NCBI GenBank assembly: GCA_964507055.1
Contig: CAZDOJ010000001.1
Span: forward strand, 913,313-977,312
Source: an uncultured Gammaproteobacteria bacterium
GTDB lineage: Bacteria; Patescibacteriota; Microgenomatia; Levybacterales; UBA12049
Reading direction: 5' to 3'
Length of the DNA: 64,000 bases
Shown: in pieces, positions 40,174-58,795 of the stretch
Numbering within the stretch: the stretch's first letter is position 1
Layout: every line of letters starts with the position of its first letter
Notes under the pieces: model-generated
The model's database searches: none
The model's input: the letters and a program-made list of their open reading frames with translations, nothing else
What the model was told of the DNA's origin: nothing
Made by a program: the position numbers and the translations under genes

Positions 40174-43140
40174 TTATTCACATTTGGCCCCTGTTGCACT
40201 ATTGGTATTACATTCTGGTCCAAGCGTAACTTGAAATGATGGAGGGGGTCCATTCAATGGATATGTCATCCTATACCCTGATGTGAGCGGAGAGACAAGT
40301 GAAACTGTATATGTTCCAGGCGGCAAAGCTCCGCTAGAGTATGTTCCATTGGTCGTCTCGACTGTTTTTCTCGCGGGTCCTGAGAAGAAAATAAGCATAG
40401 GATCCGTAATGAGTGTGTCAGGTGAAGCCAATTTTAGATCTTTATCAAAGTCATTTACGATATTTCCAGAAATTGTAAATCCTGTTGCATTTCCAAAATC
40501 AATATTATCGTACGTGTTCCCAGATTCAACGCTTAAGTTATACGATTTGGTATCTGTTGTTTGATACCAGCCTGATTGAACAACTTCCGTAAATACAAAA
40601 TCTTTAGTACACAAACCTGTAAAAGAGAACTTACCTGCTGAATTTGTTTTTGCTGTAATTGGGATATCTAAGTCTTCTGCGGACGCCTGAACTGTCCAGT
40701 TATAAAGAGGGGAATCTCCCCCATCATAAACCTTATTTGTATTTTTGTCTTCAAATATAGTTCCATTAACCACACCTGTTCCAATATCTTCAGCAATACT
40801 TTGGTAAATAGATTCAAGCGTAGAAGTTGATGGAGAATTATAGAATCGTCCTCCATTTGTATCAGCAATCTGCTGCATAAAAATAGGATCGAAAGAACCT
40901 GAACCCTGTCCAATACCAATAACCTGATAGATGATGTTTTGTCCATTAACACCGTTAATTGTCGCAGCCATTGCTGCGTTCTCTGCGGCATCTATTGAGA
41001 CATTGCCACCATTTGATCCTATCATCTGATTTGTCGCACCATCGGTCATGACGATCACAACTTTCTGTGCATTTCTTGTTGAACGTGATAGTTCACCATT
41101 TGCGAGAGCAATACCACATTCTACACATGTTCCTCCACCGCTCGTTGGAATATTTGTAATTGCAGTTTTCATCGCTGAAATATTGGTTGTTAAAGGCTGG
41201 GACACTCTCGTGAAGCTATAATTTGGATAGCTCGTACTTCCTGCGAACTGGACGAGGGAATATTGAGCATTTTTAACATGAGCTGAAACAATATCGATAA
41301 AGCTACTCGCCGCACGTTTTGCAGCAAGAGACTTAGTGAGTCCAGTCGTTGGATCCACTTCGTCCATACTTCCAGAATCGTCAAAGACAAGAACAATATC
41401 AACACCATTTGCACTACATGATCCACCTACTTTTGTTGTCGTTCCTTCTACTATTCCAAAATTAATTGTACGATCTGTGGAAAGTGAGAAATTGAGTGAA
41501 TTTGCAGTAGTACTTCTATATCCTGTTGGTGTATCAACTCGAATTGTATAATCTCCACTTCCTTGATCCGCAAATAAATATGCCCCACTAGCATCAGTCG
41601 TTTTCGGAACTGGCGTACTTTTTGTCAAAGTTACTACCCCACCCTGATAAAGCGGTTCACTAGGGTCAAGCAATCCATTCTTATTTAAATCTATAAACAC
41701 TTTACCAGCAATGTTATAGAGCGTAACCATACCAAATTCAACAGTTTTTGACGTCGTTCCAGTTGATGTCCCAGCTGTAGTAGGATTGGTGAAAGTAACA
41801 GTTTGTGTATTAACTGTCGTACTCTTCTTTTTTGCAGGTAGTGTATAGGTAATTGTATATGTACCAGCGTAAAGATTGGGAAAAGAAAAACTACCAGAGT
41901 TATTCGTAACCGCTGAACCTGTCGCTGTCCCTGAGAGCAAAATATTTACACCTTCTTCAATTGAATCTCCTGACCCCTTTTTACCATCTTCATTTCTATC
42001 TTCGAATATCGATCCTGAAATTGTAAAAAGTGGTATGATTCCAAAATTAAGTGTCCTATTGGGCCCGACTGCAAAATTTTCTTCCGAGGGTGTTGAGGCC
42101 TGATAATTGGCTGGCAAAGGAAACTCCGCATTATATGTACCAGCGAAAAGCTGTGCTGTGTAAGTCCCATCAGAACCACTCCGTGCAGTTATTGTAGCAG
42201 GTCCAGTAAAGGTAATCGTACCACCTGTATAATTGCCATCAGCACTATCATCGGAACCATTTCTGTTGTTATCAAGGAATATTGTCCCAGAAACCGTATA
42301 GTATTGTGCTATACCGAAATTGACTGATTGATTTGCATTCAAAGTCACAGATTTAGGATTTGTACTTGTTGTTTTGTAGCCTCCTGGAACTGCTACTGTT
42401 ACTGTATATGTCCCAGCAAACAAAGAAGGAAATGTGAAGTCTCCGTTGGAATCAGTTGTGGTAGTCGTGGAAGTAGGACCCGAAACAGAAACCGTTATAC
42501 CATTATTTCCAGATTCATCAGTATCTTTTGTTGTATCAATATCGGTATCTGTAAATACATTTCCAGTAAGCGTATGGACAAAACCAATACCAAAGTTTAC
42601 AGTCTTGTTCGACGTTAAAGAAACCGATTGCGGGTTGGTCGAAGTGTTTTTATATCCGTTGGGTACAGTAATCGTCACTGTATAATCTCCTCTTGGTAAG
42701 GTCACTGAGTATCCTCCCGTCAAACTTGTGGTTGTCGTGGTAGAAGATGCACCAGTAATAGTAACTGTCACACTACTAACACCAACTTCAAGAGTATCTT
42801 TATTGCCATTGGCATTGGCATCAACATATACACTTCCCGAAAGAACAGCCGTTGGAATAGGTGTTGGAGTAGGTGTATTAGTCGGAGGAGCTGGTGTCGG
42901 TGTGTTGGAAGGCGTCGGTGTATTGGACGGAACTGCTTGTGCGATAAGATCACCTAATACTCCTTTTTCTGCATTCCTTTCTTTCCCCGGCTGCGGTGAA
43001 ACAAGTTGCTTTACTTGCTGCACCTTTTCAGGATAAAAAATACTTGCTGCACTTGTAATTATGCCTACAAAAACAATTGCTATAAAAATAGTGTTCGTAA
43101 TTTTTAATATATTTAATTGAGGCTTTTTAAACATGCACAA
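40174..43140 (-). CDS. giant surface adhesin-like protein (988 aa): signal anchor, PT linker, tandem SdrD-B/CnaB-like beta-sandwich repeats flanking a von Willebrand factor A domain
   Basis: vWA MIDAS motif VDIVLVFDDSGSMDE...VVIVMTDGATN. At least 8 repeats of the type GxVFxDxNxNGxxD...GV.V.L...TD..G.Y.F. PT-rich linker TPTPSNTPTPAPPTNTPTPTPIPT. Confidence 0.65.
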   Translation of the reverse strand: MCMFKKPQLNILKITNTIFIAIVFVGIITSAASIFYPEKVQQVKQLVSPQPGKERNAEKGVLGDLIAQAVPSNTPTPSNTPTPAPPTNTPTPTPIPTAVLSGSVYVDANANGNKDTLEVGVSSVTVTITGASSTTTTTSLTGGYSVTLPRGDYTVTITVPNGYKNTSTNPQSVSLTSNKTVNFGIGFVHTLTGNVFTDTDIDTTKDTDESGNNGITVSVSGPTSTTTTTDSNGDFTFPSLFAGTYTVTVAVPGGYKTTSTNPKSVTLNANQSVNFGIAQYYTVSGTIFLDNNRNGSDDSADGNYTGGTITFTGPATITARSGSDGTYTAQLFAGTYNAEFPLPANYQASTPSEENFAVGPNRTLNFGIIPLFTISGSIFEDRNEDGKKGSGDSIEEGVNILLSGTATGSAVTNNSGSFSFPNLYAGTYTITYTLPAKKKSTTVNTQTVTFTNPTTAGTSTGTTSKTVEFGMVTLYNIAGKVFIDLNKNGLLDPSEPLYQGGVVTLTKSTPVPKTTDASGAYLFADQGSGDYTIRVDTPTGYRSTTANSLNFSLSTDRTINFGIVEGTTTKVGGSCSANGVDIVLVFDDSGSMDEVDPTTGLTKSLAAKRAASSFIDIVSAHVKNAQYSLVQFAGSTSYPNYSFTRVSQPLTTNISAMKTAITNIPTSGGGTCVECGIALANGELSRSTRNAQKVVIVMTDGATNQMIGSNGGNVSIDAAENAAMAATINGVNGQNIIYQVIGIGQGSGSFDPIFMQQIADTNGGRFYNSPSTSTLESIYQSIAEDIGTGVVNGTIFEDKNTNKVYDGGDSPLYNWTVQASAEDLDIPITAKTNSAGKFSFTGLCTKDFVFTEVVQSGWYQTTDTKSYNLSVESGNTYDNIDFGNATGFTISGNIVNDFDKDLKLASPDTLITDPMLIFFSGPARKTVETTNGTYSSGALPPGTYTVSLVSPLTSGYRMTYPLNGPPPSFQVTLGPECNTNSATGAKCE

Positions 43141-43229: not shown

Positions 43230-45638
43230 TTAGGAGATATCTGCGTGAAGTGCACCAGTTCCGTCGATTGTAAAGTTTACTTTCTTGCCTCGATCGATTT
43301 CTTTGGTCAATCGTTTCTGAGCAATCATATCTTCAACAGTATCCTGTAAATATCGACGTAACGGTCGAGCACCAAAATCTTTATCAAATCCTTCTTGCGT
43401 AATCTTTTCGATGACTGCATCATCAAAAGAAAGTGTAATATCTTGTTTTGCTAATGATTCTATCAGCTGATCGAGTAGCAGCTTTGTCACTGCGATCACT
43501 TGTTCCGGACCAAGTGGTTTAAATGTTACAACATCGTCAAAACGATTAAGTAATTCTGGTTTGAAAATGCCTTTTGTTTGTAGTTGTTCCAAAAGACGTT
43601 GCTCAAATTTCTTATCTATTGGTGTACCCTTTTCAACTTCTTCACGGATGAACTCAGATCCTGCATTTGATGTTGCGATGATAATAGCATTACGGAATGA
43701 AACAGTCGCTCCTTTATTATCTGTTAATCTTCCATCATCAAGCACTTGAAGGAAGAGATTGTGAATAGCAGGATTTGCTTTCTCAAATTCATCAAGAAGG
43801 ATAAGCGAGGCTGGATTATCATGGATTTTATCAGTCAATTGTCCACGATCTTCTCCTTCACCAGGAGCAGCTCCAAGAAGTCGTTTCAATCCATTTTCAT
43901 CTGTATATTCACTCATATCCAAACGAATCATTCGTTGTTCACCACCATAATAGAACTGTGCCAGTGCTTTCGCTGTTTCTGTTTTACCAACACCAGTTGG
44001 TCCCAAGAAAAGGAATGAGATTGGCCGTTCGCTTGTCGTCATCCCAGAGCGAATACGACGCATTGCTTCACTTATTGCAACAACTGCCGTATCTTGTGCG
44101 ATAACTCGTTCATGCAATTTATCTTCCAAATGCAATAATAAATTAATCTCCTGGCCTGTAGGAAGTGCTATGGCGACATGACTTGTTGCTTCTACTTTCT
44201 TTACAACATCTTGCTCACTGACCATTTTGCGATGCGTCTTTTCAAAGGCAGGTCGTTCTTTTTCCTGAGAGACAGCATTGGCTACAGTTTCGAGCAATGA
44301 TACGGCACTTCCCGGAAGTACTTGATCTTGGAAGAACCGTTCTGCTAGCTCAACGGCACTTACAAGTGCTCGATAACTTATAATTACTCTATATTTATCT
44401 TCAATTTTTGCAGCCTCGCCTAACGCCATTTGAATAGCATCCGCAGGCTCAACAGGTTTTAATTCAACAACGGTAAAGGCTTCTTTCAGAGGATTTTTTT
44501 CCATATATTTCTTGTACGTACCAGTTGTCATCGTCGCAACCATGGGAACATTACCGCTTTTTAGATATGGGAGAAGAGCTCCTGAAAGATCCAAACCATA
44601 AGAAGTCGCTCCAAGAATATTTTGGAAATCAGGAATATACATGAAGACATCATTGGCATGAGATATTTCAGCAATAATGTTTTGCAGTCGTGCTTCAAGA
44701 TCATTTCTATTTCCAGCACCCGCAGTCAAAGCACCTACTAATAATTGAAAGATTCGCTTGTGATTCAAATAACCACCCAAATTGCCACTAAAGCTGTGAT
44801 ATGCCAATGCTCTTACTAAATTCTCTTTTCCTGCACCGATATCTCCCACGATCAAAACATTATTATTTTCAATTTTGGTGAGACCTTCAAGCATTGTTTT
44901 AAATTCTGCTTCTCTGCCACCAATATGCGGTTCTGTCTGCAATGCATAATTTGTAAACAGAGCTGTATATTTCTTTGTCTCTGGTGTCCATCCGGAATTG
45001 AGTGCTTCACCGATACCACTTCCAGTAAATTTGATTCGTACAGGTTTGGGATTCTCTTCATCTGGCATATCAAGTCGAACCCAATACAGAATATTGTACA
45101 GATCAGTTATTTTAAGTTGCTTTGCAAAAAGAATCTTTGTGTCTTTTTCAATTAAGAATAAATATGCTACAAGCACATCAAGAGTTGTTACATATTTCGC
45201 TTTAAAAGTTTGTGCTGTTTGAAATGCACTTTGGGCAAGAAGTTTTTTATCAACATCATTTACCACTAATTCTTTACTTGTGATGTTGGCTTTTTGAAGG
45301 ACTAATTTTACTTGAGGGTAAGTGATTAAGCGTTTAATAAGCGTTGACGTATTTGGTTCTGTAATAAATCCATATAAAGCAGCGAGTGTAAACGATTCAT
45401 ACATATTTTCTTCTTTATTCTTTGACACTTCTATTGTTGGAACAGCACGACTCACTTTATAGTGAAAAAATACTTCAAACATTACAAACAAATTAAAAAG
45501 AAATACGCTAACCTTTGGAGGGATATCATATGCGATCTGATAAAGAATAAGCGAAAAAAGCATTGCAAAAATGACAAGCCTAATACTTCGTACAAGTGCG
45601 GTTCGATAAAAACGATATAGTCGGACAGATAATTCCAT
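43230..45638 (-). CDS. membrane-anchored Hsp100/Clp-family AAA+ ATPase with degenerate D1 and intact D2
   Basis: Two N-terminal TM helices (LVIFAMLFSLILYQIAY; VFLFNLFVMFEVFF). A Clp-N-like repeat. D1 Walker A degenerate (IVGDIGAGKEN) with no DE Walker B. D2 canonical ([34 protein letters not shown]). No ClpP-docking IGF loop. No M-domain. Confidence 0.7.
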   Translation of the reverse strand: MELSVRLYRFYRTALVRSIRLVIFAMLFSLILYQIAYDIPPKVSVFLFNLFVMFEVFFHYKVSRAVPTIEVSKNKEENMYESFTLAALYGFITEPNTSTLIKRLITYPQVKLVLQKANITSKELVVNDVDKKLLAQSAFQTAQTFKAKYVTTLDVLVAYLFLIEKDTKILFAKQLKITDLYNILYWVRLDMPDEENPKPVRIKFTGSGIGEALNSGWTPETKKYTALFTNYALQTEPHIGGREAEFKTMLEGLTKIENNNVLIVGDIGAGKENLVRALAYHSFSGNLGGYLNHKRIFQLLVGALTAGAGNRNDLEARLQNIIAEISHANDVFMYIPDFQNILGATSYGLDLSGALLPYLKSGNVPMVATMTTGTYKKYMEKNPLKEAFTVVELKPVEPADAIQMALGEAAKIEDKYRVIISYRALVSAVELAERFFQDQVLPGSAVSLLETVANAVSQEKERPAFEKTHRKMVSEQDVVKKVEATSHVAIALPTGQEINLLLHLEDKLHERVIAQDTAVVAISEAMRRIRSGMTTSERPISFLFLGPTGVGKTETAKALAQFYYGGEQRMIRLDMSEYTDENGLKRLLGAAPGEGEDRGQLTDKIHDNPASLILLDEFEKANPAIHNLFLQVLDDGRLTDNKGATVSFRNAIIIATSNAGSEFIREEVEKGTPIDKKFEQRLLEQLQTKGIFKPELLNRFDDVVTFKPLGPEQVIAVTKLLLDQLIESLAKQDITLSFDDAVIEKITQEGFDKDFGARPLRRYLQDTVEDMIAQKRLTKEIDRGKKVNFTIDGTGALHADIS

Positions 45639-45649
45639 AAATTAAATCA

Positions 45650-46027
45650 CTATAAAAACAATAACCAAATAGTTGCGAATGGCAAAAATATATACCCAAG
45701 AAATATTGTTACCTCAAGCAGCAAAAGGAGTGCGAGCATTAAGACATCAGCAAGGATAAGCCATGTTTTTACAAACATACCCATTGCTCTTGAAAAACCC
45801 ACAAGTCCTTGCCGATATTCATTTTTAATCGGTTGGAAATATGTTTTAAGGAACAACGGTAATGAGAATAAATGAAAGAATGAGCTGTTCAACGAAGCAA
45901 AGAACTGCAGTAATGATAAAGGACTTTCGTAGAACCAAAACTTCAAAAACATAAAAGGAATATTTAAATAACTTCTATGCCAGACAAAATGTGGTACATG
46001 AATTTGGACAGGTTTTACATTTTTCAT
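45650..46027 (-). CDS. small polytopic membrane protein (125 aa)
   Basis: Hydrophobic ORF lying 11 nt upstream of the membrane-anchored Hsp100. No family recognised. Confidence 0.4.
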   Translation of the reverse strand: MKNVKPVQIHVPHFVWHRSYLNIPFMFLKFWFYESPLSLLQFFASLNSSFFHLFSLPLFLKTYFQPIKNEYRQGLVGFSRAMGMFVKTWLILADVLMLALLLLLEVTIFLGYIFLPFATIWLLFL

Positions 46028-46132
46028 ATTTCCAACACAAACATGCCGAACGAGTTCGGACCATACTTTAAGTATATGCAGTAAGCAAGAGAATTACAAT
46101 GGAACGAAGGATGACATGAGAAAATAGAGGGG

Positions 46133-49100
46133 CTATTCAATCTCTTCTTGTCGAGTCTGTGGAGCTACATAATTAACAGGTCTAAAACTGTTAGGAATTC
46201 CAGAGTAATTGTAAGCCGTTTGAGGAGACATTGCCGCACCATTTGAAGCGACTCCATTTGCAGGAGGTGGTGTGCTATCTACTGCACCATTCGGCAAACT
46301 TGTTGGTGCTGGCGTTTGGAATACAGGGCTCGTATTCTCTGCCTGAGCAGGAGCCGCAGGTGATGCCGGAGCAACTGGCACTGCTGCTGGATCATTCACA
46401 ACTGCACCAGCAGGGGCCGGAGCAACTGGTTCTGAACCTACAGGAGTATTCACTGGAGCATCAGCTGGAGTTGTTGAGTCTGTTGGTTGTTGAGATTGAT
46501 CTTGTGTCGAACCTTGTGCATCCTGCGGTGCATTAGGATCTGTTCCTTCGACAGGTTTATCTGTTGGAGGTTGATCTCCACCATCGGTAGGTTGTCCTTC
46601 TTGTGCTGCAGGTGCATCATCGACTGCGATATTCTTCACACCAGCTGTCTCGAGAACGAGAATAGCAATCTCATCCTTTTGTCCTGCAGCTGCCACCATA
46701 TCTTCAACCATCTTTTCTAGTTCCTCATATTTAACGGTATCCTTAACAGCCAATACTGCTGCTGCTAATTGATTGCCTTTTTGACTTGCTTCATTCAATT
46801 TCGCTTGAACTGATGTGTACTTCTCTTTATCAGATGGTGTCTCTGCTGTAACAGGATTATTGATAAGCAAGAGGTGCTTCTTAAAGTTACGCAGTGGTTC
46901 ATGTGCTAATTCTTCTTCGATAACTTTGAGAATCTCAGTAGCCAATGGATCGCCTGAGTCTTTTGCAGCTTGTAGTTCTTTCTGAATAGCTGCGATGTCA
47001 TCATCAGAAGTTATATCTGTAATTGCCAAGATCTTACTTGCAAGCTCATTATTCTCTTTCTTTGCCTTCTGCATCTTTTCATATACAAGATTAAACTGGT
47101 CTTTCACTTCAGGATCAGCGAGATAAAGTGGATTAATAAGCTGCTTTAGAACATTCTTGAATTTCGTGACAGGCTCTTCGTTGTGTGCTTCTTCCGCTTC
47201 TTCTACAAGCTCACTATTTACTGCTGCAAGGATATCTTCAGCCAAGCTATCTTCATTTTCTTTAGCAGCCTTCAAATCTGTCATCAAATCCTCAATTGCA
47301 GAATCGGAAGTTGTATCATTAACCGCGAGAATCTTAGTAGCCAAAGCATTTCCTCGTTGGCTCTCCATATTGAGTTTCTCATGGAGTTCCATGAACCGGA
47401 TCTTCTTATTATTATCTTTGATATCGTCAGGGTGAATGATTTCAAGAAGGATCTTTTTTAGCTTCAAAGACGCTTGGATCTGTTGTGCCATACTATTGGC
47501 AAGCTCAATAATTTCAAATGCTAAATTGTCACCCTTTGCCTTTGCTTCTTCAATCTGTTTACGCAATGTTTGAATCTGTTTCAAATCAGTAGAGACAGTC
47601 ACTTCTAAAATACTGCTTGCCATTGCATTCTTATCTGTTCGAGCTTGGATTAACTTGTCATGAAGGACAATAAATCGTGACTTATCAACTGTACTTGTAA
47701 TGTTGTCTGGATTTGCCAAGTTGATCAAAACAGTTCTGAACTGTTCATCAGATAATGGCATAACTGTTGCACCAGCTCCACCTTTGTTAAAGACGAACTC
47801 ATTTGTATTATCACTGTAATCAATAACAATCGTGTCCCCAGCAACAAATTTCTTTGAAATGATCGCTAATGCGATAGGATTCTCAATCGCTGTTTGGACA
47901 AGTCTTCGGAGAGGTCGAGCACCATAGACAGGATCATATCCATCTTTCGCAAGCTGATTGATAGCCTTTTCTGTGATCTGCAGATTGTAGCCTTGCTCTT
48001 TCAAAAGCTTTGCAGTCTTTGCGATCGCCAAACGTGCGATTCCAGCCATATGTTCTGGTTGCAATGGCTTAAAGATAACAACTTCATCAAAACGATTAAG
48101 GACTTCCGGACGGAAGAATTTAATAAGTTCTTCGCGAACTTTAACCTGCATATCCTTAAAGATTTTTTCAAACTCTTCTGGAGTTCTCTTTGCTTTTGAA
48201 TCCACGTTGCTCAAAAATTGCTGGATAATGCCACTTCCGATATTGGAAGTACAAATAACGATAGTATTCTTAAATGAAATTGTATTACCTTTGTTATCAG
48301 TCAAACGTCCATCTTCAAGCAGTTGGAGCAAGATATTAAATACATCAGGATGAGCTTTTTCGATTTCATCAAGAAGTACGATAGAATAAGGTTTCTTTCG
48401 AACAGCTTCAGTTAATTGGCCACCTTCTTCATATCCAACGTATCCTGGAGGTGCACCAATAAGTTTTGCAACTTCATGCTTCTCCATGTATTCAGACATA
48501 TCCATACGAGCCATTGCATCATCACGTCCGAAAAGAAGTTCTGCAAGTGTCTTTGCAAGTTCGGTTTTACCTACACCGGTAGGACCAAGGAATACGAAAG
48601 ATGCGATAGGGCGATTTGCTGCAGCTAAACCGATTCTTCCACGTCGTACAGCTTCCGAAACAGCACCAACAGCTTCTTCTTGATCAACCATTCTATGATG
48701 GATTCGGTCCTCAAGCTTAAGAAGCTTTTCACTTTCATCTTCAGTAAGCTTCGTAATTGGAATACCAGTCCAAGCACTGACGACTTTTTCAATATCAGCC
48801 TTTTTGATTGATGTATCTCCTCCACCACGATTACCACCGTCTATTTGGAGCTTAACTTCAGAAGCAGCTTCATCGAGAAGGTCGATCGCCTTATCTGGAA
48901 GGTATCTTTCACCAATATATTTTTTAGAAAGTTTGACACACTCTTTCAAAGCATCATCTGGGATTTGAATTCTGTGGAATTTCTCGTACTTTGGTCGAAT
49001 AACCTTAAGCATCTCGAACGCATTCTCTTCACTTGGTTCATCTGCAGTGACAGGCTGGAATCGTCGTTCAAAGGCCTTATCTTTCTCAAAATTCTTTCGA

Positions 49101-50428
49101 TATTCAATAGTTGTTGTTGCACCAATAAGCTGGAAATGACCACGTGCCAAATGAGGCTTGATGATGTTTGCTGCATTCATACCTTCACCCTCGCCAGTTC
49201 CCATCAAAGCATGAATTTCATCAATAAAGAGAATGATTCGATTATTTGAACCAAGTACCTCGTTAATAACACCTCGCATACGTTCTTCAAATTCTCCTCT
49301 GTGACTTGCACCAGCAACTAACGACGCCACATCAAGTTGGAAAATCCTTTTTTCCTGAAGATCTTTTGGAACTGCACCCTGTACAATTTTTTGTGCAAGC
49401 CCTTCGACTAATGCTGTTTTACCAACACCAGGTTCACCGATAATAATCGGATTATTTTTTGTTCTTCGAAGCAAAACATGGACCATACGATCAACTTCTT
49501 TATCACGCCCAGCAACGGGGTCAAGGCGTCCCGCTCGAGCTTCTTCAGTAAGATCAATACCATATTTTTCAAGAACTGTCTTCTTCCCAAAATTGCTATT
49601 AGGGTTTTTTGAAAGCTTCTCGACCATTTGCTCTTTCTTTAAGTTGTGCTTTTCCAAAAGTTTACCAGTGGTATATTTAGGATCAAAGAGTACTATTAAT
49701 ATATCTTCAGGTGCTATAAAGTTTGCTCCATGCATTTTTGCATCTCGATATGCTTGATCGAATACTTCTTGAGCGGTTTTACTCAGCGTTGGTTGGCCTT
49801 TATAAACCCCCATTTTTTCAGATGCTTGAATTTCTTTAGAAATTTGTCCACCATCAGCATTCATTTCCCCAAGCATTGCATACAACTGTTGGTCATAAAG
49901 AAGTCCAATAAGAACTTGATCAGGTTCAATGAACTGTTGCTTTATACGCTTTGTCTCTTCTTGAGCGTGTGTCAAAGCTTGTGTTGCACGAGGGTCAAGG
50001 TGACTGAGAGCTGAAAGATCCGATTGACCTGCTGCGGGATGTGCTGTTGCACCATCAGATCCTGCAGGTGCTTGTCCCGGTTGACCTGGCTGAGCAGCCT
50101 GACCTGGTTGTGCGTTTGGATCTGGTTGTCCTTGTTGTGGGTTTTGACCATCTTGAGATGCTCCTTGTTGTACTGGCTGACCGGAAGCATCGGTTTGAAC
50201 AGGAGCATTTGGATCAGCAGGACCTGATGAAACTGGGGTTTCGTTTGTCGGAGACTGTACTGCATTCGGATCAGATGGAGCCCCAGTTGGGACAGGAGCA
50301 GCAGTGCTTGCATTTGGGTCAGCAGGAGATTGAGCCTGTGTATTTTGAGGCTGATTTTGAGCACCATTTGGTTGAGGAGTTATACCATCTGGTTGATCTT
50401 TTTTCTGGTTAAAAATGTTTCCGAACAT
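46133..50428 (-). CDS. giant Hsp100/Clp-family double-AAA+ ATPase (1431 aa) with low-complexity termini and four C-terminal repeats of about 95 aa
   Basis: Clp_N repeats. D1 [17 protein letters not shown] / [11 protein letters not shown]2 [19 protein letters not shown] / [15 protein letters not shown] / GARPLRR. Only about 20 aa separate the D1 small subdomain from D2, so there is no ClpB or ClpC M-domain. No IGF/IGL ClpP loop. PQG-rich residues 1-140 and 1270-1431. Confidence 0.75.
46619..47776 (-). repeat. intragenic tandem protein repeats (4 x about 95 aa) in the Hsp100 giant; same family as in the adjacent membrane protein tail
   Basis: Units begin L[AI]NP or IIHP and contain GN.LA..IL.V.D.TS...I..L...L.AAK..GD.LA.EIL (residues about 898-1270). 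Confidence 0.7.
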
Positions 50429-50528
50429 AGTCCTATTATCTATTAAATACTAAATTTTCACAAAGAACAAGCCCCCCTAAAAAGAGTTATTCGTTCTTGT
50501 TGTCTTTACAGACTTTTCTATTATTTGC

Positions 50529-53500
50529 CTAATTTTTAGCACTTTCGTCTTCTTTTTTATCATTCTCTGTTGCAGACAATTCTTGTGCTGATTCAGACTT
50601 ATTTGTATCGACTGTAATAGCAACTTTACCTTCTTCGTCTTTTTGCAATTCTGCTATAACATTCTTTCCGGCTTCTGCCTTGGCTTTTAAGTAGCCCATA
50701 ACTTCTTGTGATGAGAATCCTCCAAGCATAAGCATTGGCAATATCTCAGAGACCTTCTCCATTCCTTCTGCTTGCTTTTGCGTATCAGATGAACCGAGCA
50801 ATTCAATAGTTTCTTCTACCATCTTTACATCGGATTCGATCCATGCGATACGACCTGTTGCTTCACTACCAAATTCTGCAGGAACTGGAAGTGTTCTATA
50901 ATTTTCTTCCCATAGCTTTTTAACTTCTTCATAATCTTCATCAGAAACTGGTTGAAGTTTGTTATCTTCAGGAGCGATACTATCATCAGGGAGATGCTCA
51001 AGAATTGATTGAGCAACTGGTTCTCCCTTTGCGTTTGCATCTTTTAGTTTCTCACTAAGTTTTTCTATGTCATCTACTGAAGTAACATCTTTTGTAGCAA
51101 GAATCTCTTTTGCTAACTCATTTCCTTCTTCACTCGCCTTAGTGAGAGAATCATGTAATTCAGTAAATCGTTTCTTATCTGCCTCTACCGTCGACTTTGT
51201 AGGATCTGCAATCTGAGAAAGAACAGTCTTTACAGTATCAGATTTCTTCCCTTGAGCCTTCATTGATGCTCGAAGAAGAACCGCAGCAGTAACATTACCT
51301 TTCTGTTTTTCATCTAATAGGGTCTGGCGTACGTTCTCAAACTTAGATCTTTCAGTGCTATCTGTTATCGCTGAAGGATTTGCAATCTTACTAAGAACGC
51401 TTTGTACTTTCTCTATCTCTGCTGTCCGTGAAGCATCTTTCTTCAATGCTCTTGTTTCAAACTGTGCAATATCTCTCAGTTTTGGAACCTGTAAATTAAC
51501 CATATTGAATATTTCATTCGAGATTTGAGGAGCAGAGATAGTTGTATGATTTGTGACATTTGTTACATTTCCGAGAGAACTAAGAGGACTCTCATCTTCA
51601 TCATCAGCAGAACTCGAGCTTGAACCAGCTGAGCTACTTGAATCAGATGAATCTGTTTGCTCCATAGATGCAACCATAGTCTTTGCAGCATGAGTGGATG
51701 TTGTATTAACACTAATCTTATCTTCTTCGTCTGCAGCCAATGTCTTGGATACATCTTTCGCAGCATCCTGCTTTGCTTGGAGATACGAGACGATTTCATT
51801 TTGTGAAAAACCTCCAACCATAAGGAAAGGTAAAATGTTTGAAACTTGCTGCATACCTTCTTTGACTTCTTCCTCATTGGTTGACGAGAGTAATCCAATA
51901 GTTTCATCAATACTTTCGATATCATCTTTAATCCACTCTGATCGAGTACCAGCCATACCTTGAGGTACTTCGAGGTTTTGGTAGTTCTGCTTCCACATAT
52001 CTCGAACTGCCTGATAGTCTTCTTTACTAACATTCTGTACCCGATTAGTAGTAGGCAATGAAGCAGTCTTTTGTGCCAATGCCGCAACTTCTGCTGCCAC
52101 TGGTTCACCTTTTACTTGAGCCTCTTGAATCTTCTGTTGTAATGCCTCAATTTCAGACACTGATGTTTTATCACTTACTTTAAGAATTGATGTAGCAAGT
52201 TGGTTTCCTTGAGAGCTTGCTTTTTCAAGAGTTGCTTTCAATTTGGTAACAGCCTGTTTATCTGCAGTGTGTGTTACAGAACCAGGATTCGCCATCTGTG
52301 AAAGAACATTCTTAATTGATGAAGTTGCTTGAGCTTGTTGCTGTACTGTTGTTGAAACTGATTTTCCAAGATGAGTATTAGAGACTTGACTCAATTGCCC
52401 CTGAATCTTCTCAATTTCTTTATCTGATGTCTTATCACTTACTTTAAGAATTGATTGAGCAAGTTGACTTTTTTCTGTGGTCTTTGCCCCCTGGCTTTCT
52501 TTAACAAGCATTCCATTGAGCTTTGTCATCTTGTCACGATTAGTTACGTTCGCAAGTGAAGGGTTTGCCATTTGCTTTAAGGATTCACGCATCTGTTGAT
52601 TTGAGACTTGTGTATTGCGTTTCGCAGTTACGCTTGCAGCATTCATGATTGAGTTAGCAAGAAGATTACCTTTCTCATTATTTGTAGAGATATTCTCATG
52701 AATCTCAACATATCTATCTCTTTCTACAGTATTTGTAACTGATACCGGATTTGCGATTCTCTCAAGAGTCTGTGTCATTCGAGTAGTTTCTTGTTGCTTC
52801 GATTGGTCACGAGACATAAGAGCCGCATCGTATTTAGCAATGTCACGAAGACTAGGAACTTTAACATTTGCAGCACTGAGCACTTGGGCATTAACAGTTG
52901 CACTATTAATATTTGCCAATGGTATGGAGGTCGGCTGTGCAAAGGTTGCCTGCATATTCTGAACATTCAATTCCTTAGCTGCACCTGCAGGTCCAGGACC
53001 CAAATCCTTTGGTATTGCAAATTTCTTGGCAAAAGGTAATGCAATTGCGGCACCACCAGGAGATTCGGACTTACCACCGCCTCCAGGAGGTTGCTTATTC
53101 GTTGATGCCATATTAACAAGTGTTTTCATCACTGCTGTATCACCAGGAGCGAAATTGGAAGCATAATCCAGGAAAATCTGTAGCAAAATCCATGGAAGCA
53201 GAATAACAATCCACAACATGATAAGAGAAACAACATAAAGTGCGAAAGTTTCGATCAAGTTAACACTATTCGTAGGCGTAACGAACTGTCGTGGTCCACC
53301 AAGAAGAATATTAACAGCAGTAGGGAAGACAATTTGGCTTGCATTACCAATATTTGAATTAACGAATACAAGTGGGATCTGATTCTTCCAAAGATACACT
53401 AAACCATTAAGGAAGATCGCAAATAAAGGTGCATACAATAACCATCGGAAAAATTCTCCGATCCAGATCTTTGCTGTATTTCGAACAGGATAATAAAGGA

Positions 53501-54275
53501 GCAAGATTGGGAAAATTGGAGAAACAATAATGAAGAACCAAAGAATAATTTTTCGGACCAAAAGTAAGAAGACCATTACGAAATATGTCAGTGCAGTTAG
53601 TTTGGTCAATAAGAGAGAGATAAATGCAGACTCAGCATATTGATCCCCAAGCAAACGTAAACCTACAAAAGTTCGATAATCCCATCCTACATAAAGAAGA
53701 TCCTTTTGTGAGATACAATCCGGTGGACATGGATTATTGATATTTGAACGTAGAAAGAAACCTTGGATCAAATCGGTAAACTGATAGAAGAACTGCAGTA
53801 ACGAGTACGAGAATACAATAAGTAAGACAACAGCCACAAATCGTGGAATAAAACGCATGATTGTAAGACTTTTACCTCTGGTAATAATAATAACCATTGA
53901 GGTTGCAAGAATAACAACAAATAAGAGTGGTACTACGATATAAAGAACGATCAATGACCAATACTGTGCGATTGGATTGTTACTGTCATCGCATTGTCTG
54001 TCGGTTACACGATTTACACAAACCCAGTTGTAATTCTTCAACGTCCAGTCAAGAAAAAGTCCTGCACGAGCAGCGTTCTTACCGATAAATGTAACTTCAG
54101 GATCAATAACCCAAATAGACTGAGAGGCTGCAGAAGATCCAGTTGTAGGTTGCTGTTGTCCAGGCTGCAATTGCGTACCGGGACCAGGACCACCGGCAGC
54201 AAAAGTATTAGCTGGAGAAGAAAACGCGATAATCGCAAAAATGAACGTGAATAGAATGGACAGAATTCTTTTCAT
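50529..54275 (-). CDS. large polytopic membrane protein (1248 aa): signal peptide, Cys-containing exo-domain, about 7 TM, then a hydrophilic tail of about 870 aa built from two duplicated super-units. Tentatively VirB6/TrbL-like
   Basis: TM segments lie between residues about 105 and 370. A Gly-rich linker (PPGGGGKSESPGG) follows. The tail carries ANP...GN.LA..IL.V.D.TS repeats (ANPVSV, ANPSLAN, ANPGSV, ANPSAI, ADPTKS). The motif W..NY..L.VP...G....WI..D....EETI.LL.S.....EGM..VS.ILP.LM.GGFS is duplicated (755-842 and 1113-1205). Confidence 0.6.
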   Translation of the reverse strand: MKRILSILFTFIFAIIAFSSPANTFAAGGPGPGTQLQPGQQQPTTGSSAASQSIWVIDPEVTFIGKNAARAGLFLDWTLKNYNWVCVNRVTDRQCDDSNNPIAQYWSLIVLYIVVPLLFVVILATSMVIIITRGKSLTIMRFIPRFVAVVLLIVFSYSLLQFFYQFTDLIQGFFLRSNINNPCPPDCISQKDLLYVGWDYRTFVGLRLLGDQYAESAFISLLLTKLTALTYFVMVFLLLVRKIILWFFIIVSPIFPILLLYYPVRNTAKIWIGEFFRWLLYAPLFAIFLNGLVYLWKNQIPLVFVNSNIGNASQIVFPTAVNILLGGPRQFVTPTNSVNLIETFALYVVSLIMLWIVILLPWILLQIFLDYASNFAPGDTAVMKTLVNMASTNKQPPGGGGKSESPGGAAIALPFAKKFAIPKDLGPGPAGAAKELNVQNMQATFAQPTSIPLANINSATVNAQVLSAANVKVPSLRDIAKYDAALMSRDQSKQQETTRMTQTLERIANPVSVTNTVERDRYVEIHENISTNNEKGNLLANSIMNAASVTAKRNTQVSNQQMRESLKQMANPSLANVTNRDKMTKLNGMLVKESQGAKTTEKSQLAQSILKVSDKTSDKEIEKIQGQLSQVSNTHLGKSVSTTVQQQAQATSSIKNVLSQMANPGSVTHTADKQAVTKLKATLEKASSQGNQLATSILKVSDKTSVSEIEALQQKIQEAQVKGEPVAAEVAALAQKTASLPTTNRVQNVSKEDYQAVRDMWKQNYQNLEVPQGMAGTRSEWIKDDIESIDETIGLLSSTNEEEVKEGMQQVSNILPFLMVGGFSQNEIVSYLQAKQDAAKDVSKTLAADEEDKISVNTTSTHAAKTMVASMEQTDSSDSSSSAGSSSSSADDEDESPLSSLGNVTNVTNHTTISAPQISNEIFNMVNLQVPKLRDIAQFETRALKKDASRTAEIEKVQSVLSKIANPSAITDSTERSKFENVRQTLLDEKQKGNVTAAVLLRASMKAQGKKSDTVKTVLSQIADPTKSTVEADKKRFTELHDSLTKASEEGNELAKEILATKDVTSVDDIEKLSEKLKDANAKGEPVAQSILEHLPDDSIAPEDNKLQPVSDEDYEEVKKLWEENYRTLPVPAEFGSEATGRIAWIESDVKMVEETIELLGSSDTQKQAEGMEKVSEILPMLMLGGFSSQEVMGYLKAKAEAGKNVIAELQKDEEGKVAITVDTNKSESAQELSATENDKKEDESAKN
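50646..52868 (-). repeat. intragenic duplicated super-units (2 x about 330 aa) carrying the ANP/GNxLAxxIL repeat family in the membrane-protein tail
   Basis: Super-unit A is residues about 470-845 (VKVPSLRDIAKYD...). Super-unit B is about 927-1210 (LQVPKLRDIAQFE...). Confidence 0.65.
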
Positions 54276-54283
54276 AAATATGT

Positions 54284-54586
54284 TTAACTAAACCCAGGAA
54301 CTCTCAAGATATCAACGACTACTACTTGAATAAATACATAACCGAAAATAGCTAATAATAACCCGGTAATCGCATAAAAAATATAGCTTTTTCCTACGTT
54401 TACTCTTTGTGGGTCCCCTCTTGAAGTCATAATAGTATATCCTCCAAGGATGAGAGCAATGAGAGCAACCCCTCCTACAAAACTTAACCCAATAGGGTAA
54501 AACTCTTGAACGAATCCAATTGGATCATTCGGCAAGCATCCGAAGTCAGTTGCGACACGATCCAATGGGCATGTAGTTGCAGCCAT
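54284..54586 (-). CDS. 100-aa two-TM hairpin protein, VirB2/TrbC-pilin-like architecture (tentative), with the conserved C-terminal motif DILRVPGFS
   Basis: N-terminal 30 aa with two Cys (CPLDRVATDFGC). TM1 IGLSFVGGVALIALILGGYTIM. Short basic loop. TM2 IFYAITGLLLAIFGYVFIQVVVV. Start verified at 54586..54584. It lies 8 nt upstream of the 1248-aa membrane protein. A paralogous module forms the C-terminus of the 58892..60154 protein. Confidence 0.45.
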   Translation of the reverse strand: MAATTCPLDRVATDFGCLPNDPIGFVQEFYPIGLSFVGGVALIALILGGYTIMTSRGDPQRVNVGKSYIFYAITGLLLAIFGYVFIQVVVVDILRVPGFS

Positions 54587-54652: not shown

Positions 54653-55537
54653 TTAGAACCAGCTTTTTTTTGAAGACTCACCCTTTTCTTCTTTCAGAAG
54701 GTCTTCCAGGAGTTGTTTCTCTTTATGACCTAATTTCTTTGGAACAACAACTTTAATCTTTACATAGTGATCACCTTTGCCACCGCCTCTAAGTCGTGGA
54801 ACTCCACGTCCTGAAAGTCTAATTAGTGTTCCTGGTTGCGTCCCAGCTGGAACACGAATTTTAACATCGCCTTCAATAGTTTTGATAGAAAGTTCAACAC
54901 CTAATGCAACCTGCGGATAAGAAAGTTCTTCTTCTGTGACAATATCATACCCTTCGCGTCCAAACTTTTTATCAGGTAGTACATCAATCAGAACATCATA
55001 GTCATCAAATCGAATCCGTGAACCTCGATCAACACCGGCTGGAACTTTGATCTTTTGCTTTTTCTCATTAATTGTTACATTCTTTTCTGCACCATGAACG
55101 GCTTCATCAAAAGACACTGTGAGAGAATAAACCGGTCTTCGAGGACGTTGTGCTCCAAAACCTCCACCAAAAAATTGCTCAAAAATATCAAATGGGTCAG
55201 AAAATCCACCAAAATCAGCACCTTGACCGTTCGAAGTATATGTATAACTAAATGGACCTTGCTGTCCTCCAAATGGCCCTCCTCCACCGAATGGTCCTTG
55301 TCCTGCTCCTTGCTCAAAGGCAGCATGACCAAACTGGTCATATTGTTGGCGTTTTTGTACGTTTGATAAGACTTCGTAAGCTTTCGTTACTTCTTTAAAT
55401 TTAGCTTCCCCTTCTTTTGTCTTATTTCGATCAGGATGATATTGCATAGCAAGCTTACGATATGCCTTTTTTATATCATCAGCACTTGCACTTTTCGTGA
55501 GGCCTAATATTTCGTAATAGTCTTTGGAATCTGCCAT
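54653..55537 (-). CDS. dnaJ: DnaJ-family co-chaperone (J-domain plus G/F region plus C-terminal domains; no CxxCxGxG zinc-finger module)
   Basis: [33 protein letters not shown] (HPD). G/F-rich stretch. 294 aa. Confidence 0.8.
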
Positions 55538-55600
55538 AGGTCATTATTATACTAAAAAAGCGCTCCTCGCGCCCTTTTCTTATTTATATCTAGACTGCAA

Positions 55601-57514
55601 TTAATCTACAACTTCGCCTTCCGCTGCTTTGTCTTTTTTATCTTTATCTTTTGGTTCTCCTTCAGCCGGTTCACCGTCTTTTTCTTCTTTCTCTATTTCT
55701 TCTGTATTTTGTGCTTGCTGTCCTTGTGCATATGCAGCTTCACCAATCTTTGAAAGCGTATCTGAAAGCTCTTTCGTCTTTGCTTCAATATCTTCTTTGC
55801 TACCAGTTTCTAGGATGTCTTTCAGTGCTTTAATCTTTTCTTCAACCTCAGTCTTTATCTCTGCTGGGACTTTGTCTCCGCCATCTTTCAATGATTTTTC
55901 TGCTGTAAAGATAAGTGCATCAGCATGATTTTTTGCTTCAATTACTGCTTTTTTCTCTTCGTCTTCTTTTGCATGAACTTCAGCATCTTGTGTCATCTTT
56001 TCTACTTCTTCTTTCGAAAGTCCTGTTGAACCAGTAATCTTAATACTTTGTTCTTTGCCTGATGCTTTATCTTTTGCTGTAACACTTACAATACCACTCG
56101 CATCAATATCAAATGTAACTTCAACTTGTGGAACACCTCGAGGTGCTGGTGGAATACCATCAAGAATAAACCGTCCAAGTGATTTATTATCTGCCGCCAT
56201 TGGACGTTCTCCCTGAAGAACATTAATTTCAACTTGTGTTTGATTGTCTGCTGCGGTTGAGAATGTCTGAGACTTTGATGTAGGAATTGTCGTATTTCGG
56301 TTAATTAATGGTGTTGAAACGCTTCCCAAGGTTTCAATTCCGAGCGTTAATGGAGTTACATCCAAAAGGAGGACATCTTTTACTTCTCCACCAAGAACAC
56401 CCGCTTGTACTGCTGCTCCTACTGCTACTACTTCGTCGGGATTTACTGATCGATTTGGTTCTTTACCAAAGAACTTTGTAACTGCATCAACAACTTTTGG
56501 CATACGAGTCATACCACCTACCATGATGACTTCATCGATTTCTGACTTTTGCTTCCCTGCATCACTTAATGCTTTTTCGACAGGTTTGAGTGATTTTTGG
56601 ATAAGATCATCGACAATTTGCTCAAGCTTTGCTCGAGTCAAAGTCATTGTTAAATGAAGTGGACCATCTTTGCCTTGTGTAATAAATGGCTGATTAATTT
56701 GTGCTTCTTGTGAAGTAGAAAGTTCGATCTTTGCTTTTTCAGCAGATTCTTTCAATCGTTGCAATGCTTGTGGATCTTTTCGAAGATCGATATTGTTTTC
56801 TTTATTAAATTCTTCAGCGATGTAATCGATAATTTTCTTATCGAAATCATCTCCACCAAGATGTGTATCACCATTTGTTGATTTCACTTCGTAGACACCT
56901 TCACCAAGTTCAAGGATTGAGATATCAAATGTACCTCCACCTAAGTCATAAACTGCGATTGTATGTGCGTTCTTTTTATCCAAACCATATGCAAGTGCTG
57001 CTGCTGTAGGTTCATTAATAATACGAAGGACTTCAAGACCTGCAATCTCACCTGCTTGTTTGGTTGCTTGACGCTCACTATCATCAAAGTACGCTGGCAC
57101 TGTAATAACAGCTTGTGTTACTTTATCACCGAGATATGATTCTGCGTCCGCTTTGATCTTCTGGAGAATCTGTGCTGAAAGTTCTTGTGGAGTGTAAGTC
57201 TTTCCATCAACTTCAACAACAGCCATATCATCACGACCTGCTTTAATTGTGTATGGAAGCCATTTAATATCTTCCTGAACTGTTGGGTCGTTGAATTTCT
57301 TACCCATTAATCTTTTGATAGAGAAGATTGTCTGTTTTGACTTCAAAACTAATTGTCTTTTCGCTACATCTCCAACCACATGAGATTTTGGATCTACGAC
57401 TGATGGTATAGTGTTGCGACCTTCTGCAGAGTGGATTACTTTTGGTGCTCCACCTTCCATAACGGCTACACATGAATTTGTTGTTCCTAAATCAATACCA
57501 ATTATTTTTCCCAT
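55601..57514 (-). CDS. dnaK: molecular chaperone DnaK (Hsp70)
   Basis: [33 protein letters not shown] and other Hsp70 signatures. Acidic C-terminus. Confidence 0.95.
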
Positions 57515-58768: not shown

Positions 58769-58795
58769 TTAGCAATAATATATCACGAGTGCCAA
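58769..58795. promoter_or_regulatory. CIRCE-like operator (TTAGCAATA-N9-GAGTGCCAA)
   Basis: 15 of 18 positions match the consensus TTAGCACTC-N9-GAGTGCTAA with the exact 9-nt spacer. It overlaps the hrcA promoter and lies 18 nt upstream of the hrcA ATG. Confidence 0.45.

Follow-up and report, generated by a model that had tools for sequence, protein, structure and literature searches.

A T4SS-Type Pilin and a VirB6-Like Protein Genomically Associated with a Divergent Hsp100 at the hsp70 Operon of Levybacterales

Overview of the Locus

We analyzed a 64,000-nt stretch of DNA (hereafter, the window) from an ultra-small, Levybacteria-like bacterium; it covers positions 913,313–977,312 of the forward strand of contig CAZDOJ010000001.1 in assembly GCA_964507055.1 (GTDB lineage Patescibacteriota; Microgenomatia; Levybacterales; UBA12049). 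Downstream of its hrcA-grpE-dnaK-dnaJ genes, the window encodes a pilin of the T4SS (type IV secretion system) type, a VirB6-like membrane protein, and a large Hsp100 ATPase, ClpBig, followed by a small membrane protein, mem125, and a membrane-anchored Hsp100-like protein, ClpMem. The first three genes form a conserved trio, and the long tail of the VirB6-like protein shares a domain with some of the Hsp100s. The interpretation that we favor, and to which we give even chances, is that the trio encodes an envelope module of pilin and VirB6-like protein, derived from a T4SS, and that ClpBig is its dedicated stand-alone Hsp100, which would be recruited via the VirB6-like tail and would act on pilin-type subunits.

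All five genes downstream of dnaJ lie on the minus strand, and their coordinates and spacings agree exactly with those given in the first-pass annotation of this DNA. The pilin gene is separated from dnaJ by 66 nt, and the successive gaps that follow are 8 nt (pilin to VirB6-like gene), 100 nt (to ClpBig), 105 nt (to mem125), and 11 nt (to ClpMem).

54284–54586, minus strand: T4SS-type (VirB2-like) pilin, 100 aa (PF18895, transmembrane (TM) scan)
50529–54275, minus strand: VirB6-like protein, 1248 aa (open reading frame, ORF)
53163–54275, minus strand: VirB6/TrbL-like membrane domain, aa 1–371 (AlphaFold2 and Foldseek)
50529–53162, minus strand: tail of the VirB6-like protein, aa 372–1248, predicted cytoplasmic, with two super-units
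46133–50428, minus strand: ClpBig, class-I Hsp100, 1431 aa (Pfam, NCBIfam, and PDB alignments)
45650–46027, minus strand: mem125, a 125-aa membrane protein with the motif F.P.KNEYR.GLVGFS (alignment)
43230–45638, minus strand: ClpMem, a membrane-anchored Hsp100-like protein, 802 aa (TM scan, motif alignment)

The related loci used for comparison (82 in total) comprise 80 obtained by scanning GTDB species representatives with an alignment of the VirB6-like membrane domain and 2 from contig look-ups. The nearest relatives of the window are metagenome-assembled genomes (MAGs) of Levybacteria/Microgenomatia.

Conservation of the Gene Order

The gene order is strongly conserved in relatives, far beyond what would be expected by chance. 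The VirB6-like gene is immediately preceded by the pilin gene in 74 of 77 loci, at a median gap of 4 nt, and immediately followed by ClpBig in 68 of 70, at a median gap of 50 nt; the trio is retained in dozens of species-level genomes. The link of the module to the hsp70 operon, suggested in the first-pass annotation from the window, extends to its relatives, with dnaK located upstream of the module in 57 of 63 loci. Two arrangements were distinguished:

Arrangement A, 34 loci including the window: hrcA grpE dnaK dnaJ, then pilin VirB6-like ClpBig, then mem125 ClpMem, then nusA infB
Arrangement B, 20 loci: hrcA grpE dnaK, then pilin VirB6-like ClpBig (exoprotein), then dnaJ mem125 ClpMem

Arrangement B, found in at least 20 species, places the trio inside the hsp70 operon, between dnaK and dnaJ, with mem125 and ClpMem directly after dnaJ. 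The latter two genes are themselves tightly linked, mem125 preceding ClpMem in 41 of 41 loci at a median gap of −1 nt (at most 120 nt). Outside Levybacteria, genes of the trio occur without dnaK in three loci, which contain VirB6-like and Clp genes (L002), pilin, VirB6-like, and Clp genes (L087), or a Clp gene, four pilin genes, a VirB6-like gene, and a tail ORF (L085, Daviesbacteria); the Clps of all three have the His pore loop described below. Since the trio travels without dnaK, and since mem125 and ClpMem directly follow dnaJ in arrangement B, the five genes behave as two sub-modules, pilin/VirB6-like/ClpBig and mem125/ClpMem, rather than as the single five-gene module initially proposed.

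The converse test started from the Hsp100. Metagenome contigs were scanned with the back-translated peptide AGA[S/A]HRGEFE, which yielded 80 loci. In 15 of the 20 loci with at least 1.5 kb of sequence on both sides of the Clp gene, a T4SS pilin, a VirB6-like protein, or a tail-repeat protein is encoded within 4 kb; a small two-TM ORF of no recognized class is present in another. Such a neighbor was also found in 19 of the 38 loci with sequence on one side. In lineages whose Clps are 45–51% identical to ClpBig, a typical order is the His-loop Clp, often a 5–6-TM protein, then a PF18895 pilin (28.7–29.1 bits, above the cutoff), and then housekeeping genes. The persistence of Clp-pilin adjacency at this distance makes the His-loop Hsp100 and the T4SS pilin the most widely conserved pair.

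The 5–6-TM protein between the His-loop Clp and the pilin (L124, 3433–4155; L122, 4371–5045; L137, 8608–9264) is 220–240 aa long and belongs to no Pfam family. It may be a minimal, tail-less analogue of VirB6.

Pilin and VirB6-Like Proteins

The 100-aa two-TM protein had been described as pilin-like by comparison with VirB2/TrbC, and its orthologues (93–137 aa) bear this out. The T4SS_pilin family PF18895 is matched by 44 of 46 of them at E ≤ 0.01 (best E, 2.5e-8), and the TrbC family PF04956 by just two of the 46. The pilin of the window itself scores 23.6 bits on PF18895, under the cutoff of 26.6. On these sequence matches, we assign the protein to the Patescibacterial T4SS-pilin family PF18895. 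Its acidic, hydrophilic N-terminal segment of 28 aa contains two conserved Cys residues and is predicted to be extracellular, and the two TM cores (aa 29–47 and 76–94) are joined by a short basic loop with three Lys/Arg residues. VirB2 and TrbC carry a long cleaved N-terminal leader or signal peptide, whereas no signal peptide was found in the 100-aa protein, whose ORF starts 28 hydrophilic residues before the first TM helix and allows no upstream extension.

A second protein with a pilin domain, pil420, is encoded divergently from hrcA. It combines a signal peptide, an extracellular domain of ~320 aa, and a C-terminal T4SS-pilin hairpin, and the order metG(−) p123(−) pil420(−) next to hrcA is kept in most related loci.

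58892–60154, plus strand: pil420 (PF18895, 33.9 bits, above the cutoff; TM helices)
60185–60556, plus strand: p123, a 123-aa 4-TM protein of no family, directly 3′ of pil420

The membrane part of the 1248-aa protein has no Pfam match at E ≤ 0.01. The remote homology to VirB6 suggested for it was detected through its relatives and its predicted fold. PF04610 (TrbL/VirB6) is matched by 13 of 25 aligned homologues (best E, 1.1e-6), and several database homologues have precomputed matches to PF04610 or PF19590. The AlphaFold2 model of aa 1–400 (pLDDT 78, pTM 0.72) comprises a signal peptide, an extracellular segment of ~80 aa, and five long TM helices; of the topology proposed initially, the signal peptide and the hydrophilic tail were retained, and the count of about seven TM helices was not. 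When the membrane model was compared with the PDB by Foldseek, the best eight matches were all chains of the R388 TrwJ/VirB5-TrwI/VirB6 stalk complex (probability 0.51–0.99, five at ≥0.93; E 0.04–1.9; TM-score 0.40–0.50), and all other matches had probabilities of 0.04 or less. In view of the modest E-values and TM-scores, we call the protein VirB6-like and consider it probably a divergent homologue of VirB6/TrbL.

In the model, a cleaved signal peptide followed by five TM helices would place the C-terminus in the cytoplasm, and the fusion of the same tail domain to a cytoplasmic Hsp100 (see below) supports this location. Thus, the tail of the VirB6-like protein is probably cytoplasmic.

Some relatives possess a second VirB6-like paralogue of ~1125 aa (L034, 10001–13381; L037, 9923–13294). 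It adjoins alaS, a baseplate-J-like gene, a sortase gene, and a PYNP-like gene, followed by two subtilase genes; the window has the same alaS/baseplate-J-like/sortase block at 13041–19452, without the paralogue. No VirB4 gene was found next to the paralogues in L034 and L037, where subtilase, alaS, and sortase genes occur instead.

Two Divergent Hsp100 Proteins

The anatomy of both Hsp100s was derived from alignment to E. coli ClpA and ClpB. ClpBig consists of a P/Q/A-rich N-terminus (aa 1–140), a ClpB-like N-domain, the ATPase domains D1 and D2, four repeats of the NP type (aa 897–1263), and a P/A-rich C-terminus. The alignment confirmed that neither protein contains an M-domain, the corresponding segment being 25 residues long in ClpBig and 20 in ClpMem vs. 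141 in E. coli ClpB, nor the IGF/IGL loop for ClpP docking: the region facing 'KSIGLIHQ' of E. coli ClpA is ClpB-like and has no tripeptide loop. The ATPase sites of ClpBig are intact in both D1 and D2 (Walker A and B, sensor, and Arg finger), and its D2 pore loop, GYVGYEEGG, is canonical. The D1 pore loop is altered: KY of the KYRG found in ClpA and ClpB is changed to SH, so that His replaces the Tyr. This His is present in 64 of 66 ClpBig orthologues. The scores of ClpBig on the NCBIfam subfamily models (ClpB, ClpA, ClpV, ClpG, and ClpK) all fall under the respective cutoffs, including 880 bits on ClpB (TIGR03346; cutoff 1232), 697 bits on ClpA (TIGR02639; cutoff 993), and 653 bits on ClpV/TssH (TIGR03345; cutoff 885). 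No genes of a type VI secretion system (T6SS) were found in the window. Sequence matches of ClpBig in the PDB include 6e10 and 6e11, which contain Plasmodium HSP101. Judged by these sequence features, ClpBig defines an Hsp100 subfamily characterized by the lack of an M-domain, the lack of a ClpP loop, and a His in the D1 pore loop.

Both ends of ClpBig are long P/Q/A-rich low-complexity regions (aa 1–140, 50009–50428; aa 1276–1431, 46133–46600), which is unusual for an Hsp100.

ClpMem, currently annotated in public sources merely as a generic ClpA/ClpC, shows the N-terminal TM segment and the degenerate first AAA module ascribed to it in the first-pass annotation. Its hydrophobic N-terminus reads as two TM helices (~aa 18–38 and 43–60), of which a 19-residue hydropathy scan resolves the first alone. 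D1 is dead, with Walker A altered to GDIGAGKE, Walker B to YIPDFQ, and the Arg finger lost. The D2 ATPase motifs are intact, and the D2 pore loop (GAAPG--EGEDRG) contains no aromatic residue. A dead D1 and the lack of an aromatic residue in either pore loop are common to 33 of 33 orthologues. With these features, a role of ClpMem as a regulator, scaffold, or partner ring bound to the membrane is more likely than one as a threading motor. For its partner mem125, none of 40 orthologues matched a Pfam or NCBIfam family.

A Tail Domain Shared by VirB6-Like Proteins and Hsp100s

The tail of the VirB6-like protein is built of super-units, each formed by a 'VP.LRDIA.YE' motif, two or three helical 'NP' repeats of ~86 aa, and a C-module with the motif 'DYEEVKK.W.ENY...ILP.L.GGFS..E...YLKAK'. 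The five NP repeats of the tail (aa 501–564, 563–649, 655–738, 958–1016, and 1016–1095) and the four of the ClpBig tail belong to one family, as indicated by BLAST (E ~1e-25) and by a hidden Markov model. The AlphaFold2 model of the tail domain is compact and all-helical (pLDDT 86). A single super-unit in the family consensus identifies the tail as ancestral, and in the Daviesbacteria locus (L085) the tail has an ORF of its own, which comes just behind the VirB6-like gene.

Across every ORF in the window and the 82 loci, NP repeats are confined to VirB6-like (81) and ClpBig (23) proteins. The repeat family reported in the first-pass annotation as common to the membrane protein and the large Hsp100 is therefore real, folded, and family-restricted, although on the Hsp100 side it is limited to the clade nearest the window. 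The tail-domain family has 332 representatives. Among the tail-domain proteins classified, 112 carry a VirB6-like TM domain, one is a Clp ATPase, and 37 have no match to either profile; the latter are mostly short and probably represent fragments or split ORFs. The P0359 Clp has a complete VirB6-type tail super-unit at its C-terminus. As this Clp is just 54% identical to ClpBig, its fusion is independent of that in the window clade, and the sequences thus indicate that the tail domain was joined to the partner Hsp100 at least twice. By an argument of the Rosetta-stone type, a domain common to VirB6-like proteins and Clps points to a functional and probably physical link between the two.

Generic coiled-coil or disordered filler was ruled out as an explanation of the repeats, given the all-helical model and the restriction of the family to the 332 representatives. 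One NP repeat (51054–51203; aa 1025–1074 of the VirB6-like protein) scores near the threshold of the Pfam family Ldt_C, the L,D-transpeptidase C-terminal domain (25.7 vs. a cutoff of 26.8 bits).

The hsp70 Operon and Its Regulation

Pfam matches support the identities assigned earlier to the four genes upstream of the module.

58019–58750, minus strand: hrcA (Pfam HrcA)
57527–58000, minus strand: grpE (Pfam GrpE)
55601–57514, minus strand: dnaK (Pfam HSP70)
54653–55537, minus strand: dnaJ, without the zinc-finger domain (Pfam DnaJ, DnaJ_C)
58769–58805, minus strand: hrcA promoter-like site, TTGACA-17-TATATT with an upstream TG (11/12 match)
58769–58795, minus strand: degenerate CIRCE-like inverted repeat overlapping the hrcA promoter (3 mismatches)
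55538–55600, minus strand: dnaK-dnaJ spacer with a terminator-like hairpin (AAAAGGGCGC/GCGCUUUUUU) and a U-run, then TAGTATAAT (RNA fold)

The site upstream of hrcA is the top sigma-70-like match of the region. The CIRCE control postulated for this promoter has a counterpart in the overlapping inverted repeat, which is degenerate: it deviates from the consensus used (TTAGCACTC-N9-GAGTGCTAA) at three positions, and a match was also obtained with 3 of 100 shuffled sequences. A CIRCE-like element is likewise present upstream of hrcA in ~49 related loci. None was found before pilin, VirB6-like, or Clp genes in the related loci, the lone other CIRCE-like match (4 mismatches) being located before dnaJ in one locus (L066).

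The spacer between dnaJ and the pilin gene contains no detectable hairpin or terminator and is unstructured by RNA fold, in line with the first-pass annotation, which makes read-through from dnaJ plausible. Transcription of the module from the CIRCE-controlled hrcA promoter is plausible, and heat-shock control of the module may reasonably be inferred. Embedding of the Levybacteria module in an HrcA/CIRCE-type hsp70 operon suggests that it is probably co-expressed with DnaK, DnaJ, and GrpE. The hairpin in the dnaK-dnaJ spacer (dG −13.8 kcal/mol, z −1.7) may act as an attenuator accompanied by an internal promoter, in which case the hrcA promoter would govern dnaJ and the module only in part. 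Weak promoter-like sites were also found before ClpBig and mem125. No Rfam families were found in the intergenic regions.

Proposed Function and Alternative Explanations

We propose that the VirB6-like protein spans the membrane so that its N-terminus faces outward and its long helical tail reaches into the cytoplasm, where the tail would recruit the Hsp100 hexamer to the membrane. The canonical D2 motor of ClpBig would pull on pilin embedded in the membrane, or on proteins that carry a pilin domain (e.g., pil420), and these would be either dislocated for assembly on the VirB6 platform or extracted and recycled. The role of ClpBig would then resemble the presumed work of VirB4 on VirB2 in the classical T4SS and that of ClpV on the T6SS sheath. 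mem125 and ClpMem would constitute a separate sub-module tied to dnaJ, with ClpMem serving as a membrane-bound, non-threading AAA+ partner.

Several points weigh against this interpretation. The pilin and VirB6-like proteins of the window themselves score under the Pfam thresholds, and the fold match of the membrane domain is weak (E 0.04–0.1, TM-scores 0.4–0.5). Repeats on the Hsp100 tail occur in just 23 of 66 ClpBig orthologues, and 4 of the 20 well-flanked His-loop Clp loci have no pilin or VirB6-like gene nearby. Contact among Hsp100, VirB6, and pilin is a prediction from the genes. Simple threading of the canonical kind is disfavored by the sequence of the pore loops, i.e., the D1 His of ClpBig and the pore-less ClpMem, and the dnaK-dnaJ hairpin together with the weak promoters before ClpBig and mem125 could uncouple expression from CIRCE. 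Finally, VirB4, the canonical motor, is probably encoded elsewhere in the genome, as it occurs in 80% of Patescibacteria assemblies (PMC12102498); the Hsp100 may accordingly be an accessory rather than the motor. The 64-kb window contains no VirB4, VirD4, or VirB11 gene, in agreement with the first-pass annotation, and no VirB4-like gene was found in the window, among the annotated genes of six related loci, or among the ORFs around the L034 paralogue. Given the prevalence of VirB4 in the phylum (PMC12102498), a rewired T4SS remnant without VirB4, as suggested initially, cannot be asserted.

The leading alternative, about half as probable as the interpretation preferred here, is that the genes are merely co-regulated neighbors: the pilin and VirB6-like proteins would be dispersed parts of a VirB4-dependent T4SS, with virB4 near oriC, and the Clps would be the Hsp100s of the HrcA regulon of this lineage. 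Genes of the clpB type are commonly placed in HrcA/CIRCE regulons, and the operator-like element is found at hrcA alone. VirB4 is reported from 2,417 assemblies out of 3,035 for Patescibacteria, with a location near dnaA in Microgenomatia, where VirB6 is reported as 'scarce' owing to divergence (PMC12102498); the 1248-aa family could be that missing VirB6. On the other side, Clp-pilin/VirB6 adjacency persists without dnaK in the three loci outside Levybacteria and in many metagenomic loci, the intergenic gaps are tight, and VirB6-like proteins and Clps share a tail domain, with at least two independent fusions. The M-domain of ClpB is needed for DnaK-coupled disaggregation, and ClpBig lacks it.

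A bolder form of our proposal holds that the His-loop Hsp100, together with the membrane-anchored pseudo-Hsp100, replaced VirB4 as the extractor of VirB2-like pilins at a VirB6-like platform in Microgenomatia and probably in wider Patescibacteria. We regard this as unlikely, slightly more so than simple co-regulation.

Two further explanations are improbable, each clearly more so than the replacement of VirB4. According to the first, ClpBig would replace VirB4/VirD4, unfolding cytoplasmic substrates and pushing them across a VirB6-like channel, with the pilin as a conduit and adhesins or proteases as cargo, as in the exporter PTEX. VirB4, VirD4, and VirB11 were not found within 10 kb in any of the 82 loci, the coupling of an Hsp100 to a membrane pore has a precedent in Plasmodium HSP101-EXP2, whose structures 6e10 and 6e11 are among the matches of ClpBig, and both ClpBig and the VirB6-like paralogue are repeatedly followed at once by genes for secreted proteases and surface proteins. 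The neighboring exoproteins, however, have ordinary N-terminal signal or anchor segments and so appear to be Sec substrates; VirB6 in solved T4SS structures is a pentameric pilus-assembly platform rather than a demonstrated protein channel, and VirB4 is probably present elsewhere in the genome.

The second is membrane-protein quality control, in which misfolded membrane proteins would, under stress, be extracted and then refolded or cleared by the DnaK system, ClpMem/mem125, and ClpBig, with the VirB6-like protein as receptor. FtsH and Msp1 are precedents for such activity, and the membrane anchor of ClpMem, the embedding of the module in the hsp70 operon, and the tight linkage of dnaJ, mem125, and ClpMem in arrangement B would fit it. 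Yet ClpMem, with a dead D1 and without aromatic pore loops, would be a poor extractor, no protease partner is apparent as neither Clp has a ClpP loop, and the specific and much wider linkage is that of ClpBig with T4SS pilin genes, not with membrane proteins generally.

Comparison with Known Systems

The T4SS of Patescibacteria is derived from MPF-FATA and includes VirB4, VirB3/PrgI, VirB6, and arrays of VirB2-like pilins (Quinonero-Coronel et al., 2025, PMC12102498; reviewed in PMC12857230); VirB6 was reported as scarce in Microgenomatia, and Clp and DnaK are not mentioned (PMC12102498). The module described here resembles this system in its PF18895 pilin, its polytopic VirB6/TrbL-like protein, its chromosomal location without a relaxase, and the pilin arrays of two related loci (L085 and L109). 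It differs in the lack of virB4, virB3, virB8, and virD4 within 10 kb, in having Hsp100s as partner ATPases, and in its setting in an hsp70 operon.

In the Agrobacterium VirB/D4 and R388 systems (7o3v, 8rt9), a pilin, a VirB6 platform, and a hexameric ATPase at the cytoplasmic face follow the logic proposed here, and the R388 TrwJ/VirB5-TrwI/VirB6 stalk complex supplies the chains closest in fold to the membrane domain. In contrast to the VirB4-driven T4SS, the adjacent ATPase is a class-I AAA+ Hsp100, no VirB5, VirB3, or VirB8 was seen, and the VirB6-like protein bears a helical tail of 880 aa. Extended VirB6 proteins with a VirB6-like core and a very long hydrophilic extension are known, e.g., in Rickettsiales (PMC12857230). 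The likeness to them is drawn from their description; the tail studied here differs in being a helical repeat domain confined to its own family and to Clp partners.

ClpV (TssH) is an Hsp100 dedicated to the T6SS that works independently of ClpP and DnaK, its N-domain recognizing a structural subunit that is pulled out and recycled. ClpBig, as the proposed dedicated Hsp100 of a surface apparatus, would be comparable, and it scores 653 bits on the ClpV model (TIGR03345). It nevertheless stays under the cutoff of 885, has no T6SS genes around it in the window, and is distinguished by its T4SS pilin/VirB6-like partners, the D1 His, and the shared tail domain. Plasmodium PTEX (HSP101-EXP2-PTEX150) also couples an Hsp100 to a membrane complex for translocation, which is an analogy only: this eukaryotic complex has an Hsp100 with a retained M-domain and a pore protein that bears no relation to VirB6. 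ClpMem is analogous to AAA+ proteins of the Torsin/LAP1 type (PMC5425593). Such proteins are tethered to the membrane, have no aromatic pore loops, and depend on degenerate partner modules. ClpMem differs from them in being derived from a two-ring Hsp100 and in its intact D2 ATPase site, homology being limited to the AAA+ fold.

A link of Hsp100/Clp or DnaK to the Patescibacterial T4SS was not found in the accessible T4SS and Patescibacteria literature. The parts come from known superfamilies, and what is new is the association of a pilin/VirB6-like pair with an Hsp100, the His-loop Hsp100 subfamily, the membrane-anchored pseudo-Hsp100, and the shared tail domain; in current annotation, the proteins of the module are no more than 'hypothetical' or a generic 'ClpA/ClpC'. 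Patescibacteria account for a large part of the diversity of bacteria. In one tested species the T4SS is essential for epibiotic growth, and its function has been called completely unknown (PMC11665869, PMC12857230). The locus offers a candidate VirB6 for Microgenomatia, where this protein is reported as scarce, and it ties T4SS-type pilin genes to a previously unrecognized Hsp100 subfamily across many lineages; in Levybacteria, the trio adjoins the hsp70 operon or lies within it. Should the coupling be physical, ClpBig would be the second Hsp100 dedicated to a secretion or surface apparatus, after ClpV of the T6SS, and the first for a T4SS-type system. If the Hsp100 indeed replaced VirB4, the module would represent a new class of envelope machine: a surface filament or contact apparatus derived from a T4SS, co-regulated with the heat-shock system, and powered by a Clp/Hsp100 ATPase. 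The AAA+ field may also take interest in the half-dead membrane-anchored Hsp100 and in the changed pore loops, where ClpBig has His for Tyr in D1 and ClpMem has no aromatic residue.

Neighboring Surface Proteins and Other Features of the Window

In the window, ClpMem is followed by a gene for a surface protein. In ~35 relatives, ClpBig is immediately followed by the gene of a secreted subtilase, of a thermolysin, or of a surface protein of the SdrD_B or cohesin type.

40174–43140, minus strand: surface protein with six SdrD_B domains and VWA (Pfam; N-terminal signal/anchor segment)
Exoproteins after ClpBig in related loci: L058, 15595–17535; L039, 14710–16461; L062, 15580–17865; L042, 14820–16679; L071, 16263–18233

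The first-pass annotation had considered the adhesins as possible cargo of the Hsp100s. Given the ordinary N-terminal signal or anchor sequences of the adhesins and proteases, threading by an Hsp100 is unlikely, and these proteins are probably Sec-exported surface partners. Many of the exoproteins after ClpBig end in a Cys-rich motif, 'C.FDPSC...SSIQ.C.L.CTP', and none has LPxTG. The motif could be a lineage-specific sorting or attachment signal; the pilin encoded nearby has two conserved extracellular Cys residues.

The rest of the window is chromosomal, with reduced housekeeping genes (rpoBC, alaS, ftsK, RNase J, pnp, infB, nusA, and metG) and a uniform G+C content. Origin from a mobile element or an integrative and conjugative element was ruled out by this uniformity, the housekeeping flanks, and the chromosomal synteny kept across species.

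Many MAGs that serve as GTDB species representatives and clearly carry a Levybacteria-type locus (L003, L005, L010, and others) are titled 'uncultured Gammaproteobacteria bacterium', which is probably a labeling error of the submitter. In an 81%-identical relative assembled from nanopore reads (L001), the VirB6-like (10001–13865) and ClpBig (14015–18224) genes are each split into two ORFs, probably through frameshift errors and not by true gene fission. A 449-aa AAA+ protein of the window (27858–29207, minus strand) has a Lon-type lid domain, with no Lon protease domain detected. Several housekeeping proteins are reduced in size, namely DnaJ without the zinc-finger (294 aa; 54653–55537), IF-2 (491 aa; 34033–35508), and AlaRS (615 aa; 13041–14888).

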